Shown: positions 54,224-64,000, numbered from the stretch's first letter. The stretch is 64,000 nucleotides of DNA from Candidatus Kapaibacterium sp. (GCA_963665665.1 OY762428.1:3072001-3136000); one strand, 5' to 3'. Notes: generated by a model not told the origin, from the letters alone. Numbers and translations are program-made.

Positions 54224-56983
54224 ATGGAATTCATTATGAAAAAGATTATCACCTTATTAATTACTCTCTCGACAGTTTTGATTTTTGGCAGAATGCAGAT
54301 ATTTGCCGAAGCTCCTAAGATAAGCCTTGATAATGATTACGGGGAGATTCAACGGCAGTTCAACAAATGGCTTGATACTGCCGACTACATGAATGAAAAA
54401 GGCTGGAAAAACTATGCCCGCTACCTTTATAATAATAGTTTTTATGTTGATAGTAAAGGAAAGCTGGACGTTGAAAGGTTCAGGTTTAACCAGATTGAAC
54501 AGAAAAACAGGAATGACCGTATCCTGGATGATGCCGGGTGGATACCAGCCGGTCCGGGTTACTATGCCCCTTCTTATGATACGCTTTCCGGGCATGGTAT
54601 TGGCAGGTTGAACTGTGTTACTTTCCATCCTGATGACCCGAACACATTTTGGATTGGCGCACCCGAAGGCGGTATCTGGAAAACAGTTAATGCCGGGCAA
54701 AGCTGGATGCCGATGAATGAAGGCTTAACAACTCTTTCTGTTTCTTCAATAGCAGTAGACCCCAATAATACAGATGTAATCTACCTTGGCAGCGGTGATT
54801 TTGATCAGGAGAAAGCTTATTCGTTCAGGGCTCACGGAGTATTCAAAACAACTAATGGCGGACTGAATTGGGAAGAAACCGGGCTTAACATCAATACTCC
54901 CGGATTTAACAGATCTTCAGTCAGGGATTTAGTTGTTTCCCCTGATGGGAACAGCATTCTTGCCGCCTGTTACTTCGGTGTCTGGAAATCACAGGACGGA
55001 GGAATGACCTGGGATACAACTCTTGACTGGGCTATTTGCGATATGAAACAGCATCCCCAAAGAAAAAACGAAGTTTATGCAATGACTCATTTTTCCTGGA
55101 GCCGTGGGCAGGGTTCATGGATAATGAAATCAACGGATTTCGGCGATTCCTGGGAACAGCTCAGCTTTAATACAACCGACAGTATTATGTACGGCAGGAT
55201 GGAAATGGAATTCTCGAATGCTGATCCGGAATACTTATATATACTGTGTGTAGGAGAGCAAATTAACCGTAGAGGTTTTCACGCTCTTCATCGATCAACA
55301 GATGGAGGCGATACATGGGAAATGATGTCTGATATTAATAGCTCTCCGAATATTATGGCATGGTACGACGGTGTTGCGAACGGTGGTCAGGGTACTTATG
55401 ATGTAATGCTGATAACAGATCCTGATGACCGAGATAAAATTTATGTTGGAGGTGTTAATGTCTGGGGATCGGAAGACGGCGGAGCTACATGGAATATTGC
55501 CACACTCTGGCTCAATGCCCTTGGCCCAAGCCTTCACGCGGATCAGCATTATGGTGCTTACCGGCCGCTGGACGGATATTTTTACATCTGCAATGACGGA
55601 GGTATTTACAGGACAAAAGATATTATTCCCGGGAAAACAGAATGGATTACGGAAGTGGTTGATAAAAGCAACGAAGGAGTCAAGCCCGACGCTCCAGTAA
55701 GAAGATTTGAAACAAAGTGGGAAAATATTTCCGGCAATATGGAAATTACCCAGTTCTACAGGATGGGACTTTCGAAAAATCATGCAAATTACGTAACTGC
55801 AGGGGCGCAGGATAATTCCTGCTACTACCTGAACAGTAATGAGGACTGGATTAACTACATACCCAACTATGACGGTATGGAGACAATGATAGATTATACC
55901 AATCCTGACAGGATATTTGGCGCCTGGCAGTTTGGCGGGCTTTGCCGTTCCGAAGACGGAGGTAAAACGGTAGATAAAAACATTACTTATGAAATTAATA
56001 ACTCCGGGGAAAGAGGCCAGTGGATAACACCTTACGCCATGGATCCGAATAATCCCGATATTATATACGGCGGCTACAGGAACCTGTGGCGGACAACCGA
56101 CGGCGGCGATACATGGCTGAAAATATTTAACGTGGATGAATATATCCAGGAAACAGGAAATACCAATGGTATGAGCGATATTGAAATATCCCGAACCGAT
56201 CCGGAAAGGATCATTATTTATAAATCGCCTTTTTATAACTGGAATCTCGATACTACTTTTATCCATGAAATGTATATGAGCAGGGACGGCGGAAATTCAT
56301 TTGAACCAGTTACTCAGTTACTTCCGGAATCAATTAATTTAGTAAACGATATTGAAATTGATGACGATGACAGCGACCATGTATGGATAGTAGGTACTGC
56401 CGGAAGCCTGGGCGGAGTTATGTACGAATCGAAAGACGGCTGCCAGACATGGGAAAACAAGAACAAGGCTATGATATTTCCCGGAGCGAATTATGCAGTT
56501 GTACTCGACAGCAGAACAGATGAAAATGTGGTCTACGTAGGCAACGAGGGTGTGGTGTATATGACATCCGACAGTATGGACAAATGGGAAACCTACAGCA
56601 AGGACCTGCCACTATCAAGGGTTTACGAACTGGAAATAAATTATCCCTCCGAAAGAATTTATGCCGCCACATACGGCCGAGGCGTATGGTACGCACCGCT
56701 ATTCGATCCGAATGTATCGGTAGATGATAATCAATCCGGTGAAAGCAGCCTGAAAATAAGCCCCAACCCTTCGAAGGACAGGATAGAAGTACAGATTGCA
56801 AATAAGAAAACAACACCGGCTTTGGTTTCTATCATTGATATTAACGGCAGGAGAGTCAGAAATTACAATATGAATATTGAATCCGGGCAATTTACCATCG
56901 AACACGGCTTAAACCCCGGAGTATATTTTATTAATATCACTATTGGCAGTAAAATTATGTCAAGCAGGTTTGTTGTTCAATAG
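54224..56983 (+). CDS. Secreted BNR/VPS10-like beta-propeller (glycosyl hydrolase-like) protein with T9SS CTD
   Basis: Multiple S/T-x-DGG-x-x-W boxes, GAQDN, AATYGRGVW, CTD ISPNPS...IDINGR...PGVYFI. Confidence 0.85.
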   Translation: MEFIMKKIITLLITLSTVLIFGRMQIFAEAPKISLDNDYGEIQRQFNKWLDTADYMNEKGWKNYARYLYNNSFYVDSKGKLDVERFRFNQIEQKNRNDRILDDAGWIPAGPGYYAPSYDTLSGHGIGRLNCVTFHPDDPNTFWIGAPEGGIWKTVNAGQSWMPMNEGLTTLSVSSIAVDPNNTDVIYLGSGDFDQEKAYSFRAHGVFKTTNGGLNWEETGLNINTPGFNRSSVRDLVVSPDGNSILAACYFGVWKSQDGGMTWDTTLDWAICDMKQHPQRKNEVYAMTHFSWSRGQGSWIMKSTDFGDSWEQLSFNTTDSIMYGRMEMEFSNADPEYLYILCVGEQINRRGFHALHRSTDGGDTWEMMSDINSSPNIMAWYDGVANGGQGTYDVMLITDPDDRDKIYVGGVNVWGSEDGGATWNIATLWLNALGPSLHADQHYGAYRPLDGYFYICNDGGIYRTKDIIPGKTEWITEVVDKSNEGVKPDAPVRRFETKWENISGNMEITQFYRMGLSKNHANYVTAGAQDNSCYYLNSNEDWINYIPNYDGMETMIDYTNPDRIFGAWQFGGLCRSEDGGKTVDKNITYEINNSGERGQWITPYAMDPNNPDIIYGGYRNLWRTTDGGDTWLKIFNVDEYIQETGNTNGMSDIEISRTDPERIIIYKSPFYNWNLDTTFIHEMYMSRDGGNSFEPVTQLLPESINLVNDIEIDDDDSDHVWIVGTAGSLGGVMYESKDGCQTWENKNKAMIFPGANYAVVLDSRTDENVVYVGNEGVVYMTSDSMDKWETYSKDLPLSRVYELEINYPSERIYAATYGRGVWYAPLFDPNVSVDDNQSGESSLKISPNPSKDRIEVQIANKKTTPALVSIIDINGRRVRNYNMNIESGQFTIEHGLNPGVYFINITIGSKIMSSRFVVQ

Positions 56984-58057: not shown

Positions 58058-58882
58058 ATTATATCTCCTTTTGATCAATTTTCCACCCATCTGTAATGAA
58101 TTTTATATCGTTTGGTTCCAAACAGACAGCAATTCTGCCTTTCTCTAATTCAATATTTTCCATGTCTATATGCTAAATATTTTGTAAATGGAAATAATCT
58201 TTTCTATCAATATCAAAACCCAATATACAAAAAAATATGAATTAGAATTAGGGTATATCAATTAATAATGAACTGAGAAAATAAATTCTAATCTTGGTGA
58301 AATATCACTATTATATTCTCTTTTCAGATTAGTGCAAAATGCCGATTTATATAGCCACCTGCTTTAGCTCCTGGTAAGCATTTGAGAATTTATCAGCCGG
58401 ACTTCAGTCCTTTAGATGATATGGGTTAAAAACCGAATAACTAATTCTTTATCTTTCGGGATGTCTCTTTTTTCTAAAAAGTATTTTAAAACCACCCCGC
58501 CCTTCGGGCATCCCTCCGGCGTAGGGGAATCGCCTTAATTTATAATTATCATTAAGTTAATTTCCCTCCCGTGGAGGGGATTAAAGGGGTGGTTCATCGA
58601 TAATATAAAAAAATTGTAAAATAAAAATGCTTGTTATGCTATTAAAAGTCAGCCTCCTGTTGGGATGTAGATTTGTTCAGAAAAGCATTTATGTATTCCC
58701 GTTAATTGGGTGTAAGTTTATTAACTCATCGGATGACTCGGAGTCATCCGATGAGTGATACCCCCCCACCTTTCCTCATAAATAATTACAAAATACTTTT
58801 AAAATCAGCTCTTTAATTATAACACTGCCGAGGCCGTAGATTGCCCGCGTTAATATTTCAAAACATTAGAAAAGGATATATT

Positions 58883-59704
58883 ATGTGGATAGAAATATTT
58901 CGCGCTGGAAAACATACCGACAACGGCGGCCTGACAGCCGAGTTTTCCGAAGCTGATATTGATGAGATTGTCAGAAAGTATAATGCAAAAGACCCGGCGG
59001 AGCAGGCGCCGCTCGTAAAAGGCCATCCGGCACTGGACAGCCCGGCGCACGGATGGGTGGAACGCCTGGCAAGGCGCGGCGGAACAATGCTTGCACGTAT
59101 AAAAAATTTCTCCGATGAGATTGTGGCGGATATCAACGCCGGGAGGTTTCGCAGGGTATCGGTTGCTCTCTACCCGGATATGACTCTGCGCCACGTGGGT
59201 TTGCTTGGCGCTGCCGCCCCGGCAGTGTCAGGACTTCGCCCCGTTCGTTTCTCGGAGTTCGATAATATTAAAGAATACAACTTTGATATTAACCCGGCTC
59301 CGGAGGACGAAGAAAAGGGCGAGCTGCGAACGGAAATCGAAAAGCTGAAGAAAACCGCCCGTCTGAAGGAATTCCGCGAATTTGCCTCCAGGCAGAATAT
59401 AAGCCCGGCATCCGCTGCCAGGCTGGTAGATGCGCTCGAAGCTGCCTACAGGGCTGATGAAGCAAACACCGGGGGCGGAAAATCGGCTGTTGATACAGTT
59501 AAGGAATTCGCGCGAGAATTCAGCAAAGGCCCGGAGTTCGGAGAAATGAAGCAAAGCGCCCCGGCAAACAGGCTGCCGGCGAGAGATTTTTCAGGAACGA
59601 ATACTCCCGAACAGAGAAAGGCACTGCACGAAAAGGCCGTCAACCTGATGAATGCCTCGCCCTGCCTTTCATACGAGGAAGCGCTGCTAAGGGCGTGGGG
59701 GTAA
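58883..59704 (+). CDS. Mu-like prophage I protein (prohead protease/scaffold)
   Basis: WIEIFRAG.H, APLVKGHP...PAHGWV, FRRVSVAL, LRHVGLLGAAAPAV.GL motifs, then a scaffold-like helical tail ending SYEEAL. Confidence 0.8.
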   Translation: MWIEIFRAGKHTDNGGLTAEFSEADIDEIVRKYNAKDPAEQAPLVKGHPALDSPAHGWVERLARRGGTMLARIKNFSDEIVADINAGRFRRVSVALYPDMTLRHVGLLGAAAPAVSGLRPVRFSEFDNIKEYNFDINPAPEDEEKGELRTEIEKLKKTARLKEFREFASRQNISPASAARLVDALEAAYRADEANTGGGKSAVDTVKEFAREFSKGPEFGEMKQSAPANRLPARDFSGTNTPEQRKALHEKAVNLMNASPCLSYEEALLRAWG

Positions 59705-59953
59705 ACGTATTAACCTTCAGAAGGTGGAACCTTCGGAAGGTTGTGCAAAATGACACTCTAACACCAGGGCTCGTCGGGATATCCTTTCAAACCTCTGTCC
59801 TAGGTCCTGCCTGGGATAGTATAAACTACAAAAGCGTTGCTAAGCAGGGGCTTAGCAACGAGAAGAAGAACCTCCCCTTAAATCTCCTCCAATGGAGGGG
59901 AATGAAAAAAGATAGATAATTCAGGAACTAATTTAAAATAACAGGAGAACAAA

Positions 59954-60901
59954 ATGTCAACAGCAAGAATAGACGAACTGAGAATGATCGATCCCGTGCT
60001 GTCAACGGTAGCACAGGGATATACAAACGCCGCCATGGTATCAACGAAACTCTTCCCGATAGTGGAAGTAAGCAAACTGAAGGGCAAGGTTCCCGAATTC
60101 GGCAGGGAATCCTTCCTGATACGTGATACTGTAAGGGCAATCCGCGCGGCATCAAACAGGATAGCCCCTGCCGATGTGAACATGATAGAATTTCAGACGC
60201 AGGAAAGAGATATTGAAACAGCGATCGATTACCTTGAGGAAGAGGAAAGCCCGGACTTCCTGCGATACGAGCAGCGCCTGACCCGTGACCTTATGGACAT
60301 ACTCCTGCTGGAAAGAGAAAAACTGGCCGCTGACCTGGCGCAGGATACAGGTAACTACGGCAGCGGGTTAACGAAGACTCTGGACGATAGCAACTGTTTC
60401 GATGATTACAGCCTGGCTATTGATCCCGTGGCGATAATAAAACAGGGGATGATAGCTGTTCGTGAGAAAATTGCAAAGTACCCGAACACAATGGTAATGG
60501 GAGATTCAGTTTACAACGCGCTTACCTCTCATCCGAAAATAATCGAACGGGTAAAATACGCAGGTATCAGCAAAGTTGATGTCGGCGTGTTCAGGGAATT
60601 GTTCGGTATAAAGGATATTCATATCGGCAGGGCTGTGCAAACCGAAGACGGCGCGACATTCAGCGATATATGGCAGGATAATATCATTATGGCTTATACT
60701 GATAAAAATGAAAGGGGCAAACGCAGCGAGTTCAATCCGAGTTTCGGCTATACCTTCAGACGTAAGGATATGCCAGAGGTGGACAGCTACTTCGAGAACG
60801 GCGGCAAGCTGAAAGTTGTCCGCGCCACGGAAAATTATACTATAAAGATCACTGCTCAGGACGCGGCATATCTTATAACCGGTGCTGTGCTGTACGGGTA
60901 G
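59954..60901 (+). CDS. Phage major capsid protein
   Basis: LRMIDPVLSTVAQGYTN...LFPIV, PNTMVMG, HPKI, PSFGYTF, AYLI motifs of HK97-fold capsids; directly after the protease; strong SD. Confidence 0.8.
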   Translation: MSTARIDELRMIDPVLSTVAQGYTNAAMVSTKLFPIVEVSKLKGKVPEFGRESFLIRDTVRAIRAASNRIAPADVNMIEFQTQERDIETAIDYLEEEESPDFLRYEQRLTRDLMDILLLEREKLAADLAQDTGNYGSGLTKTLDDSNCFDDYSLAIDPVAIIKQGMIAVREKIAKYPNTMVMGDSVYNALTSHPKIIERVKYAGISKVDVGVFRELFGIKDIHIGRAVQTEDGATFSDIWQDNIIMAYTDKNERGKRSEFNPSFGYTFRRKDMPEVDSYFENGGKLKVVRATENYTIKITAQDAAYLITGAVLYG

Positions 60902-61189
60902 GGATTGGTCTAAAGGAGACGGTTCTATCCAATTTGTCATTTTGAGCGATAGCGAAGAATCCATTCTTCAACATTTCTCATCAGGAGAAGAACCTCCCCT
61001 ATAATCCCCTCCTCCGCGAAGAGGGGATAAGAAATAAATATGTAAAAATTCCCCTCTCGAGGGGTGGCAGCGAAGCTGACGGGGTGGTTCTTTATACGAG
61101 AAGAAGAACCACCCCTTTGATCCCCTACAATGGAGGGGAATGAAAAACAGAATGAATAAATCAAATAACTACAATCAAAGGAGAAAATT

Positions 61190-61534
61190 ATGTCGGCAAA
61201 TACAAAAACATATCAGCCGGTACAGGCTGTAAGCGTAAAGGCAGCGGAAGACCTTCCGGGGTTTCGTTTCGTATCACATCTCGGATCGGTATGCGCCGCA
61301 GGGGCGAAATCACTTGGCGTACCCGAGGTATCCTGGAAAGAAGACGAACAGGCGGCGGTGATAACTCTTGGCACTATTGCCGTTGAAACATCGGAAAGTA
61401 TCAGTGCCGGTGCGAATGTTACATCCGATTCCGAAGGAATGGGCGTTGTTGCTACTGAAGGAGATGCTGTTAACGGCAGGGCGCTGGATTCATGCTCCGA
61501 ACCCGGTTTTGTAAAAATATTACTTGTGCCATAG
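61190..61534 (+). CDS. Capsid cement/decoration protein (DUF2190-like)
   Basis: 114-aa Gly/Ala/Val-rich; G..V.SD..G..V....G...GRAL pattern; follows the capsid gene. Confidence 0.7.
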   Translation: MSANTKTYQPVQAVSVKAAEDLPGFRFVSHLGSVCAAGAKSLGVPEVSWKEDEQAAVITLGTIAVETSESISAGANVTSDSEGMGVVATEGDAVNGRALDSCSEPGFVKILLVP

Positions 61535-61542
61535 GTGACGGC

Positions 61543-61983
61543 ATGGCATATATCAGCGAATCAGATTTTTTAAAAGAATTGTCTTCGGAGGAGCTTGCCC
61601 GGCTTACGGGCGACCCCTCCGGGGCAACGATTGACCACGAGCGCACGGGAATTGCGATAACACGTTCCTGCGCGGTGATTGATACCATGCTGCACGGCAA
61701 ATACGGCGTACCCTTTGCAAGCCCGCCGGAGATAATAATAAAGATTGCGGCTGACCTTGCGGTGGCGCATTTGCTTGAGTTTTATTACAAGTCATCGAGT
61801 TTGCCTCCTACAATTGCCTGGCGCAAGGTGAATGCCATGAACCTGCTGAAGAAAATTGCCGCAGGGGAAATTATCCTGACGGGATATACCGCTACCTCAG
61901 ACGCTCCCCCGGCAATAGTCTGCAGAACCAGGCAGCAGCGGCTGTTTTCGGATGAAGTACTGAACAATTACGGAGATGATTAA
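61543..61983 (+). CDS. Mu gp36-like head-tail connector (DUF1320)
   Basis: MAY...D......EL..LT.D, IDTML..KY.VP, AADLA..HL, A..LL..IA.G.I.L. Confidence 0.8.
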   Translation: MAYISESDFLKELSSEELARLTGDPSGATIDHERTGIAITRSCAVIDTMLHGKYGVPFASPPEIIIKIAADLAVAHLLEFYYKSSSLPPTIAWRKVNAMNLLKKIAAGEIILTGYTATSDAPPAIVCRTRQQRLFSDEVLNNYGDD

Positions 61984-61984
61984 A

Positions 61985-62272
61985 ATGAAAAGCAAAATTC
62001 AATATATAACAAGATACGGTGTGTGGATGCTGATTGGCTTATTTACCTTCCTGCTTCTGATGCCACGCTCCGCCGAGCTGAACACACTGCTGCTTATACT
62101 CCTGATCGAGTTCACGGCAATAGGGCTGTCGGGCCTTGCGGCTTATGTTTACACCAGGGTTGATTTCACCCGGGAATACACCCGCCACGAGCTTGGGTTG
62201 ATTTTTCTTGGCGTGCACATCTGCGCCGGCCTTACCATGACGGGAGTGTATTTTACGCAGTTTATGGTATGA
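61985..62272 (+). CDS. Small three-TM membrane protein (holin candidate)
   Basis: Three hydrophobic segments in about 95 aa, immediately upstream of a peptidoglycan hydrolase gene. Confidence 0.5.
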   Translation: MKSKIQYITRYGVWMLIGLFTFLLLMPRSAELNTLLLILLIEFTAIGLSGLAAYVYTRVDFTREYTRHELGLIFLGVHICAGLTMTGVYFTQFMV

Positions 62273-62350
62273 GTAGGGGTTTTAGAGATTTTCTCAACCA
62301 CCCCTTTTTTCCCTCCTTGAAAAGGAGGGGAGAAGAAACGAATATAAAAA

Positions 62351-62520
62351 ATGAGGCTGCCTCGAAAGCCTGAAAAGCGGTCATTTCCCGACAAGCCGGG
62401 ATCTTCGACTGAGCATGGTGAAGAATCCATAACCCGCATGAATACTGGATTCTTCACTTCGCTCAGCCTGCCCTCAGCCTGCCCCGATGTGTCGGGGATT
62501 TATCGGGGAATGACAAATTT
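62351..62520. repeat. Composite palindromic repeat, copy 1
   Basis: ATGAGGCTGCCTCGAAAGCCTGAAAAGC.GTCATTTCCCGACAAGCCGGG...GGGAATGACAAATT, nearly identical to 63598-63755. Confidence 0.9.
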
Positions 62521-62595
62521 CCAAAAATCGGAATAGTGAGGCATCCCGTTTAGGGGAGATAGAAGTATTATTCAAAAAAACATAAGAGGTAAAAA

Positions 62596-63180
62596 TTGAA
62601 AACAAATATGCTAATAATATTGATATGGCTGCTGCCGATGATAGGTGATGCTGCTGAAAAATATGAACTGAGATGTCTGCCGGGATTACTGGAAGAATCC
62701 ATGAAAATTGCTATTGATCAGGCCGGGACGCTTGAAAGCGGAAAGAACTCCGGCGCTGTGGAAAAATACCTGGAATCGGTAGGGTTGAAACCCGGAAACC
62801 CTTACTGTGCTGCCGGACAATACTACTGCTTTCTGAAAGCCGCGCGGAAGCTGGGATTGAGCATAAGATCAATACCAATTCCGCGTACAGGCCTGGCAAA
62901 TGCAATTTTCAATCATGCAAAGAAATACGGTAGAAAGGTTCCTTACAAACCAGCAGTTCACGACCTTCTGATATACAGGAAAGGCCGTACCCGCTTCGGC
63001 CATGTGGAAAGGATAATAGAAACGGGCCGCGCAGGCTGGGTGAAAACTATTGCATTCAACGTCAGCAGTATTGTTGATGGCAAGAAGCGGGAAGGAGTGT
63101 TTATCCGCAAAAGGAATATTTATCATCCGCTGGCGGCTATGTTCGTGCGCGGGCTTGTAGGATTCAGGGAAAGGGATTGA
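62596..63180 (+). CDS. CHAP/NlpC-type peptidoglycan hydrolase (endolysin-like) with N-terminal hydrophobic signal
   Basis: G..E...N.G..V.KYL..VGL..GNPYCAA (catalytic Cys) and GHV (His). Confidence 0.7.
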   Translation: MKTNMLIILIWLLPMIGDAAEKYELRCLPGLLEESMKIAIDQAGTLESGKNSGAVEKYLESVGLKPGNPYCAAGQYYCFLKAARKLGLSIRSIPIPRTGLANAIFNHAKKYGRKVPYKPAVHDLLIYRKGRTRFGHVERIIETGRAGWVKTIAFNVSSIVDGKKREGVFIRKRNIYHPLAAMFVRGLVGFRERD

Positions 63181-63181
63181 C

Positions 63182-63541
63182 ATGATAAGGAAGATATGTG
63201 AAAACCACCCCATGGACAGCGATTATGACAACGGAAGAATACTTACGAATCAGGGTAGTTTTCCCGGTAGGAATAAGCAGATAAAACTAAAGTCCTGGGA
63301 AATTTCATGGGACGGCGCAGCTGGAACTTTGGACGGAACGATTAATATATACGCTTCCAATTCGGGGCACAGTGAATCCCGAATTCAAAGCATCAACGTC
63401 GGCAGTGCATCAAACACAGACGACTGTGTTCTTGATGCTCCGATAGTTGATTCGGAATTCATTCGCTTTGAATATACTGCGCATTCTATCACTGCCGGAA
63501 CGCTGAACATTGTGTTGTTTTATGATTCGATTAATCCGTAG
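63182..63541 (+). CDS. Hypothetical beta-rich protein, probably virion-associated
   Basis: Coupled to the preceding gene; W.G..GT..I..SN...IRFEY.....AGTL pattern common in phage structural proteins. Confidence 0.5.
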   Translation: MIRKICENHPMDSDYDNGRILTNQGSFPGRNKQIKLKSWEISWDGAAGTLDGTINIYASNSGHSESRIQSINVGSASNTDDCVLDAPIVDSEFIRFEYTAHSITAGTLNIVLFYDSINP

Positions 63542-63563
63542 GGGCGACCCTTGTGGTCGCCCT
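63538..63563 (+). repeat. GTAG-type REP palindrome
   Basis: GTAG-GGGCGACC-CTTGT-GGTCGCCC-T, classic GTAG REP architecture. Confidence 0.8.
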
Positions 63564-63597
63564 CATCTAAGATTCTGGGATAAGAACCACCCCTGTA

Positions 63598-63755
63598 ATG
63601 AGGCTGCCTCGAAAGCCTGAAAAGCTGTCATTTCCCGACAAGCCGGGATCTTCGACTGAGCGTAGCGAAGAATCCATAACCCGCATGAATACTGGATTCT
63701 TCACTTCGTTCAGCCTGCCCCGATGTGTCGGGGATTTATCGGGGAATGACAAATT
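63598..63755. repeat. Composite palindromic repeat, copy 2
   Basis: Near-identical to 62351-62520. Confidence 0.9.
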
Positions 63756-63868
63756 CCCAAAAATCAAAATAATGAGACATCCCGACTTAGGGGTGGTTGG
63801 GAAAATATTTGGTGATTCGGAGACTTTCCATAAACGAGATGTTGAAATAATATAAACCATAAAGAAAT

Positions 63869-64000
63869 ATGAAGAAAACAATACTAATATCGCTTCTGTC
63901 CTTCGCCTTAGGGATATTCACCGGATTATCCTTTGTCGAAAAAGGTAGTGTATCAGTGCAGGAAAAAATTGTTCGCGACACGGTTATTAAAACCATAAGG
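63869..64000 (+). CDS. Membrane-anchored protein, 3'-truncated (possible spanin-like/lysis-associated)
   Basis: MKKTILISLLSFALGIFTGLSFVEKGSVSVQEKIVRDTVIKTIR..., open to the window end. Confidence 0.5.
   Translation, partial: MKKTILISLLSFALGIFTGLSFVEKGSVSVQEKIVRDTVIKTIR

Follow-up and report, generated by a model that had tools for sequence, protein, structure and literature searches.

A vertically inherited, Mu-derived head, packaging and lysis gene set split over distant loci points to a gene transfer agent-like system in a Candidatus Kapaibacterium family

Why cells retain genes for virus particles is a question raised anew by a stretch of the Candidatus Kapaibacterium sp. chromosome (GCA_963665665.1) that ends in a run of Mu-like phage head and lysis genes. 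The window, here the whole stretch of 64,000 nucleotides (G000:C1:3072001-3136000), belongs to a 5.46-Mb single-contig genome, G000, and its genes were called from the open reading frame (ORF) list and from Pfam and PHROG scans of the window. The original prediction, made from the window alone, was of a domesticated capsid or gene transfer agent (GTA)-like system; to our knowledge, only a handful of GTAs are known, almost all of them in Alphaproteobacteria. We find that the window probably contains the greater part of one locus of a domesticated GTA-like system for head formation, packaging and lysis, which is ancient, spread over several loci, derived from a Mu/BcepMu-like phage and vertically inherited. 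The domestication proposed earlier is supported by the downstream genes, the distribution, the trees and the ratios of nonsynonymous to synonymous substitution (dN/dS); the function of the particle, DNA transfer or another use, is a prediction.

The cluster is an operon that encodes protease/scaffold, capsid, cement, gp36-type adaptor, holin-like, CHAP, jelly-roll, membrane and portal proteins (Table 1), and every gene that had been named, from the protease to the transmembrane (TM)-anchored protein, was present, co-oriented and open in the ORF list. Pfam, PHROGs and identities of 36-44% to BcepMu (NC_005882.1) establish the Mu-type identity of the portal, gp36 adaptor, gpI protease/scaffold and gpT-type capsid. 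The homologous BcepMu head proteins were 42% identical for the capsid (major head protein), 44% for the cement protein (gp35), 36% for the portal and 38% for the protease/scaffold (37.6% across 133 aa of gp32); the gp36 family and the large terminase family are also common to both. The match of the protease/scaffold to phrog_976 was limited to its N-terminal part, and its length is normal for the family (252-359 aa in relatives), with 8/8 columns retained that are invariant in all other family sequences. The capsid matched phrog_1005 over its full length and Pfam Phage_cap_E as well, and its length was found to be 311-319 aa in 32/33 loci, the remaining ORF having 340 aa. The gp36 ORF opens at 61492; since relatives (134-166 aa) align from residue 18 on, its likely start is at 61543. 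Unlike in BcepMu, no transposase A/B, gpF, gpG, gp37, small terminase subunit (TerS) or contractile tail was found in the system, its terminase is unlinked, and its gene order is permuted, with the lysis genes and portal after gp36 instead of before the protease. We infer that this permuted order would fit a deletion across a tandem or circular intermediate.

The earlier statement that neither a portal nor a terminase accompanies these genes was correct inside the window but not beyond it, as the portal starts 572 bases past the window end and an intact large terminase with both ATPase and nuclease domains lies 1.39 Mb from the head cluster. The portal is shorter than that of BcepMu by about 100 C-terminal residues and retains 46/46 family-invariant columns. 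The terminase, which retains 63/64 such columns in G000, is located between a type IX secretion system (T9SS) cargo gene and a beta-lactamase-family gene; the guess that loci might be split in the style of GTAs thus proved right in that the large terminase forms a separate locus. The same was true of the family (metagenome-assembled genomes labelled Candidatus Kapabacteria/Kapaibacterium, Ignavibacteria or Bacteroidota), in which the terminase was found in 118/130 genomes, mostly far from the capsid (~934 kb in G091, ~313 kb in G112) and among neighbours that Pfam and PHROGs identified as host genes only. The exceptions were G024 and G003, where it is within the head cluster. Two observations on the terminase loci are added here. 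In several genera the terminase match came in two pieces inside one 490-555-aa frame (G019:C8:173562-174989, G042, G072, G078, G049, G051, G014, G116), implying that a few dozen residues have been inserted between its ATPase and nuclease domains. In G000, the lone terminase is followed, 1.4-3.6 kb downstream, by a transposase pair of the IS3 family and a gene for a Rep3 initiator (L034:12592-14872, genome about 1,740,600-1,742,900).

The distribution of the capsid was found not to be patchy, in agreement with the proposed domestication: it was detected in 118/130 species genomes of the family (92/100 of high quality; 51/55 genera), mostly as one intact copy, and in 0/16 genomes from ten other families of the order. 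In nine of these 118 genomes the best match was weak or fragmentary only (E above 1e-80), and a genus-level survey gave a capsid match in 22/24 other genera of the family. Gene order was collinear with the window in 12/12 and then 20/20 relatives' loci, and the portal was inside the cluster in 27/32; in genus g64 only protease, capsid and cement remain together. Outside the family, the next-best capsids among 185,579 species genomes were those of Pasteurellaceae Mu-like prophages (38-40%), the best match among 50,697 phage records was BcepMu-type (42%), and the best in IMG/VR, in a search based on only two peptide patterns, was 43%; no free phage of this capsid clade was found in the phage records or IMG/VR. 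Capsid, terminase and a Mor-like regulatory gene described below were jointly absent, or present in prophage-like form only, in genera g48 (2/2), g3 (3/3) and g59 (1/1), the genomes of which are 91-100% complete. When the RpoB tree was rooted with five outgroup genomes, these genera fell into two clades nested in the family, so that three mostly unlinked parts were jointly lost twice. The genes of the system are gained or lost as a set.

The surroundings of the cluster were examined for mobility and tail genes. Downstream of the portal, where a prophage might have continued, there are host genes, including those for a DUF1016/YhcG nuclease, an OPT transporter, a T9SS cargo protein and Sir2. 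Next to the cluster in G000, neither gpF nor any integrase, transposase, repressor or tail gene was found; the marks of a Mu-like prophage (transposase A/B, a repressor/early region, gpF/gpG and an adjacent tail module) are thus absent from the locus. When BcepMu proteins were used as tblastn queries, portal, protease, capsid and cement were matched at the locus, gp36 matched only two resident prophages (E2 and E3, below), and gp8, gp9, gp27, gp30, gp31, gp37 and gp39-52 matched nothing at the head locus; tail, gpF, gpG, gp37, TerS and transposase queries matched nothing in G000 outside E2/E3, and the tail proteins had no tblastn match anywhere in G000. In six relatives' loci annotated with Pfam, and with PHROGs on the flanks, host genes were found on both sides in 6/6, differing per genus, and no integrase, transposase or replication gene was detected in any of the six. 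The gene directly after the portal in G000 encodes the YhcG-type PDDEXK nuclease (window-equivalent 66253-67308; L002:8253-9308). This family gave 13 tblastn matches in G000 at 28-34% identity (the portal-adjacent gene and 12 other sites), and its absence from the relatives' clusters suggests that it is probably an independent insertion.

Vertical descent was assessed by comparing a capsid tree (33 rows) with an RpoB tree (30 rows, excluding G009 with an in-frame stop and 956 aa, G137 with no RpoB match, and G003). All five multi-species genera were recovered in the capsid tree with 100% support, and both trees agree on the pairs g13+g14 and g7+g64 and on the inner topology of g14, such that the two are congruent where both are resolved; the order within g9 differs between them. 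Flanks are syntenic within genera g14, g9, g65 and g64. Substitution rates were estimated by the Nei-Gojobori method on the two closest species pairs. The synonymous rate (dS) was 0.26-0.87 for the cluster, 0.47-1.14 for flanking host genes and 0.47-0.51 for rpoB, and the corresponding dN/dS values were 0.025-0.25, 0.035-0.24 and 0.02-0.05; by gene, dN/dS was 0.025-0.044 for the capsid, 0.04-0.06 for the portal and 0.08-0.12 for the gp36 adaptor. More distant pairs were saturated in both cluster and flanks. The cluster genes are as old as their host flanks and, as the original prediction had supposed, are under purifying selection. As G000 has no congener among the compared genomes, retention of invariant columns was used for it instead of dN/dS, and it was found to keep 45/45 in the capsid and all in the smaller proteins. 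As is characteristic of GTAs, these phage-derived particle genes are fixed in the chromosome, inherited vertically and maintained by purifying selection.

These results bear on two other explanations. If the cluster were a mobile satellite, or a defective prophage specific to the family and very successful at reinfection or reintegration, the flanks that differ between genera and the different placement of G000 in the capsid and RpoB trees would be accounted for. This explanation is very improbable and largely refuted, however: the cluster and its flanks have equal dS, the flanks keep their synteny within genera, an integrase, transposase or replication gene was found in none of the six annotated loci, the parts occupy loci far from each other, and no clade member was seen among IMG/VR contigs, where the two peptide patterns gave 43% at best. 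The same dS equality and the lack of an integrase, a primase-rep replication module and att sites in 6/6 loci set the cluster apart from phage-inducible chromosomal islands (PICIs). That the genes are instead the remains of a prophage in decay, useless to the host, is scarcely credible: although G000 has repeat-filled gaps, no fibre gene and no recognisable promoter motif, the low dN/dS and the intact ORFs across 51/55 genera refute decay at the level of the family, and the invariant residues of capsid and portal are kept in G000 itself.

Next to shared inheritance, a candidate promoter motif links the parts of the system. A motif with the consensus TTTTAAAACGGTTTTCTT was identified ahead of the protease gene, where a TAnnTTTG-like box follows it at a distance of ~20-21 nt, and TTTYRAAAYGGTTTTCT within the shared motif is a putative activator site. 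A position weight matrix (PWM), trained only on 30 protease upstream regions, scored 16-22 upstream of the protease in 11/30 relatives and at least 17 in 4/21 terminase upstream regions (g8, g13, g14 and g21), compared with 0/627 control upstream regions at a score of at least 15. In these genera the same predicted promoter motif precedes both the head operon and the distant terminase. Searches for further members of the regulon were negative: the IUPAC form of the motif in five genomes gave counts close to those of a reversed-pattern control, and of nine extra sites examined most were inside ORFs, with one ORF pair matched and no shared downstream gene. The candidate regulator is a small Mor-like protein encoded with an XRE/S24 switch ~20 kb beyond the window end in G000; RcGTA, the GTA of Rhodobacter capsulatus, is regulated by CtrA/GafA. 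The Mor-like gene was found in 121/130 family genomes, immediately ahead of the terminase in G139 and G140 and adjoining the head cluster in G116; its product matched phrog_836 over part of its length and had no sequence match among solved structures. A UmuD-like gene pair was also observed, 3.5 kb from the portal in G091 (L098:16706-17757) and ~25 kb from it in G000 (L003:8691-9597).

Several of the remaining genes of the operon may serve lysis. The 98-aa protein with three hydrophobic segments had no family match in the Pfam or PHROG scans and is 43% identical to the protein encoded ahead of the CHAP endolysin in E2 and E3, which suggests that it is a holin. The CHAP protein, the Pfam score of which (22.7 bits) is below the 26-bit cut-off, retains 17/18 family-invariant columns and is 50% identical to an E2/E3 CHAP protein that matches endolysin PHROGs; it is presumably the endolysin. 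The 145-aa membrane protein is 44% identical to the gene product after CHAP in E2/E3, matched viral hypothetical proteins only in an Atlas search and was modeled by AlphaFold2 with a beta domain between an N-terminal TM helix and a C-terminal helix (predicted template modeling score 0.40); it probably belongs to the lysis cassette. Relatives have the holin-like protein, CHAP and the membrane protein as a conserved cassette in the operon. The 119-aa protein after CHAP gave a confident AlphaFold2 model of a jelly-roll sandwich (mean predicted local distance difference test score 90.7), for which VIA-align Z scores were 10.5 to PBSX XepA (6i56), 9.1 to the cement protein of BPP-1 (3j4u_H) and 8.6 to YomS. 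The modeled fold is consistent with either a lysis accessory protein, resembling XepA/YomS, or a capsid decoration protein, resembling phage cement. Its gene was assigned to 17/32 relatives' loci by single-linkage clustering, with more found by tblastn. Between the 119-aa and 145-aa genes, relatives have 0-3 extra genes (zero in G000) with a common N-terminus and a variable C-terminus that match tail-fibre or collar-fibre PHROGs.

Such a lysis cassette, conserved in the operon where no delivery apparatus was found, could also be expected if the capsid were kept for a use other than transfer, such as a compartment for protein or nucleic acid, programmed lysis releasing protected DNA (for biofilm or nutrition) or abortive infection. 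The likeness of the jelly-roll protein to XepA (Z 10.5), a protein of the PBSX lytic cassette of Bacillus subtilis that is cytotoxic according to PMC6834076, is in line with this explanation. We nonetheless regard it as decidedly unlikely, because the portal and the intact, co-inherited large terminase, with ATPase and nuclease domains and putatively co-regulated in several genera, point to DNA packaging.

G000 also carries two fuller, prophage-like elements, E2 (genome 2,907,000-2,955,000; L004-L006) and E3 (4,389,000-4,440,000; L007-L009), which are near-identical (large terminases 95.6% identical). One arm encodes ParB, a methyltransferase, a phosphoadenosine phosphosulfate reductase, terminase, a 481-aa Mu-type portal, gpF and gpG, and the opposite strand encodes protease, decoration protein, capsid, gp36, a holin-like protein and CHAP; a primase/helicase is carried as well. 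That there are two copies would be in line with a phage that is transposable or active in some other way. At 40-50%, the identity of the E2/E3 portal, protease, holin-like, CHAP and membrane proteins to their counterparts in the window is low enough to place E2 and E3 in a distinct lineage.

These elements are relevant to a further alternative, in which the system makes heads only and uses the tails of a helper: host-encoded heads would dock through the gp36 adaptor onto the tails of infecting or resident Mu-like phages. In capsid-forming PICIs, capsid, portal and connector genes are encoded by the island itself but tail genes are not, and the islands are mobile, with integrase, replication and helper-sensing genes. 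The cluster would then act in phage interference and in the spread of host DNA, like a fixed capsid-forming PICI that has lost its mobility, and the Mor/C-type activator of an incoming phage could turn the operon on. Consistent with this, no tail genes were found, the gp36 adaptor is under purifying selection (dN/dS 0.08-0.12), and E2 and E3 have related portal, protease, gp36, holin/CHAP and Mor-like genes. Counter to it, many relatives have fibre-like genes of their own in the cluster, the gp36 proteins of the cluster (E1) and of E2/E3 are too divergent to be matched by tblastn at E 1e-3, retention across the family requires an equally persistent helper, and there is no PICI-type integrase or replication module; unlike capsid-forming PICIs, moreover, the system is without helper-sensing genes and is inherited vertically. 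Overall, we consider dependence on helper tails unlikely.

The domesticated GTA-like system that we favor was compared with particles of known type. RcGTA, the 'genome' of which is multi-locus according to PMC5026251, likewise consists of phage-derived head and packaging genes that have become fixed in the chromosome and are inherited vertically, under purifying selection, throughout a large clade; its parts too lie at several loci and include lysis genes for release, and integrase or replication genes are lacking. Unlike RcGTA, the system has no tail genes and no small terminase that could be found, is from another phylum, and has portal, gp36 and capsid of Mu/BcepMu type rather than HK97/RcGTA type, indicating an independent origin. 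FpGTA of Faecalibacterium, according to PMC12946183, consists of a 10.5-kb and a 5.5-kb operon ~125 kb apart and packages 8.4-8.9 kb of host DNA. Like FpGTA, which is podovirus-like in the same account, the system is a small, split GTA-like set outside Alphaproteobacteria that lacks a long tail; the host phylum differs, packaging has been demonstrated for FpGTA whereas the present system is known from its genes, and homology between the two is not claimed. PBSX (PMC6834076) is a defective phage kept by its host that packages 13-kb host DNA and has a lysis cassette, as here, and its XepA is the best fold match of the 119-aa protein that follows the endolysin (Z 10.5), although this fold is a common jelly roll and cement of BPP-1 (Z 9.1) is the alternative. 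Unlike the present system, PBSX is a killer particle with a complete contractile tail. A literature search found no paper linking Kapabacteria, Ignavibacteria or Bacteroidota with such an agent.

Several results weigh against vertical, functional retention of the system as a GTA. For descent, the G000 capsid pairs with that of G019 (95/87) while its RpoB pairs with that of G018 (99), and deep nodes lack resolution in both trees. For integrity, the capsid may be broken in G021 (in-frame TAA; G021:C393:11671-12594) and G114 (two frames; G114:C29:77832-78760), by real decay or by assembly error, and about eight relatives' terminase matches were flagged with one stop; the three of these that were examined have ORFs of 431-477 aa. 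For function, no tail, tube, sheath, baseplate, tape-measure, gpF, gpG, gp37 or TerS homologue was found beside any cluster by a sequence-based search that may miss divergent genes, and the Mor assignment of the activator is below the Pfam cut-off (18.1 versus 24.9 bits). In G000, finally, the cluster is devoid of fibre-like genes, and the shared motif is unrecognisable at both the head operon and the terminase: the upstream gap has a weak remnant only, TTTTAAAATCAGCTCTT, with a PWM score of at most 9.1, the PWM gave 52 matches across the genome versus 48 in the control with none at cluster or terminase, and an ungapped comparison of the two upstream regions revealed nothing convincing. G000 thus shows signs of erosion, in its lack of a fibre gene and its degenerate promoter motif. 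Its coding parts are fully conserved, yet the fibre gene is missing, the promoter is degenerate and the gaps are filled with repeats, and on these grounds the regulation or activity of the system may have changed in this genome.

In the family at large, the gene content suggests a course of events for the GTA-like system. A signal, possibly DNA damage acting through the XRE/S24 switch and the small Mor-like activator, would trigger expression; the cell would assemble procapsids around the portal; these capsids would be loaded with DNA, presumably that of the host, by a terminase for which no small subunit can be recognised; and the heads would be closed by the adaptor and released when the holin/CHAP cassette lyses the cell, as in GTAs. 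The system would thus most likely make DNA-filled capsids that are released by lysis in the manner of a GTA. Whether it is also an independent, Mu-derived, ancient GTA-like regulon of unlinked loci, with the head-lysis-portal operon, the lone terminase and a Mor-like/SOS-type switch, that forms tail-less, fibre-bearing, DNA-filled capsids, the first of its kind in Bacteroidota and the Fibrobacterota-Chlorobiota-Bacteroidota (FCB) group, with a mode of delivery new to GTAs (borrowed phage tails, or protected DNA for uptake), is in our judgment evenly balanced.

Table 1. Coordinates of the cluster genes, the gaps around and between them, and the packaging genes outside the window (window numbering unless stated otherwise)
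Feature	Position	Strand	Length and basis
Upstream gap	58091..58882	.	792 bp; host repeat units; 21 blastn matches in genome
Head maturation protease/scaffold (Mu gpI type)	58883..59704	+	273 aa; phrog_976, E 1e-44
Intergenic gap with short host repeat	59705..59953	.	7 blastn matches
Major capsid protein (Mu gpT / BcepMu gp34 type)	59954..60901	+	315 aa; phrog_1005, E 7e-88
Gap full of genome-wide hairpin repeats	60902..61189	.	118 blastn matches; families D1, D5, D7, D9
Cement/decoration protein (DUF2190 type)	61190..61534	+	114 aa; Pfam Phage_cement_2
gp36-type head-tail adaptor	61543..61983	+	146 aa; Pfam Phage_Mu_Gp36, E 1e-17
Membrane protein, three hydrophobic segments	61976..62272	+	98 aa; hydropathy
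Gap with ~200-nt repeat	62273..62595	.	52 blastn matches
Exported CHAP peptidoglycan hydrolase	62596..63180	+	194 aa; Pfam CHAP 22.7 bits
Jelly-roll beta-sandwich protein	63182..63541	+	119 aa; no family match
Gap with host repeats	63542..63868	.	42 blastn matches; fibre-like genes here in relatives
TM-anchored membrane protein, 5' part	63869..64000, ends window-equivalent 64306	+	145 aa; no family match
Mu-type portal	window-equivalent 64572-65708, outside window		378 aa; Pfam Portal_Mu, E 2e-93
Large terminase, intact, both domains (ATPase, nuclease)	genome 1737833-1739224		463 aa

The gaps between the cluster genes are a peculiarity of G000, as relatives' loci are tightly packed and without such repeat-filled gaps. 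That the gaps hold repeat families found throughout the genome, a claim of the original prediction, was confirmed by genome blastn of six gaps within or just past the cluster (7 to 144 matches per gap). The repeats are composed of short hairpin units, and Rfam matched nothing on the cluster at E up to 0.1. The ~200-nt repeat preceding the CHAP gene recurs at 63597-63793 (89% over 208 nt) and elsewhere in the genome. Shine-Dalgarno-like sites, which had likewise been reported, were found upstream of the capsid, cement, CHAP and portal genes. A 34-nt leader ending in AAAGGAGAAAA precedes the starts of cement (61154-61187) and portal (window-equivalent 64537-64570) with 88% identity, and it appears that ribosome-binding sites are part of the repeat elements or are preserved by them.

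The region 5′ of the cluster was as described before, with a divergent TPR protein and then a T9SS cargo gene beyond the 792-bp gap. Large genes directly upstream of the head cluster recur in five genera (window 54224-56983; L022:12083-15787; L023:11698-15189; L032:1321-3771; L026:5047-7446). A T9SS sorting domain, Por_Secre_tail, is encoded by the genes of the window and of G019, and T9SS cargo proteins of G000 are matched by the products of the G018 and G004 genes; the fifth gene is that of G007. This recurrence may be due to chance in cargo-rich genomes or to a conserved association.

Each independent domestication of a phage particle is a test of why cells retain virus particles, and here, in a mostly uncultured family, selection on a Mu-derived gene set is as strong as on the host genes that flank it. 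The pattern of co-loss and the shared promoter motif provide testable handles, namely the regulon, the activator site and the comparison of genera that have lost the genes with those that keep them. If the particles carry host DNA, the system would give a widespread environmental lineage a major route of gene exchange and would have an architecture new to GTAs; if they do not, it would represent a new cellular use of a portal-bearing capsid.

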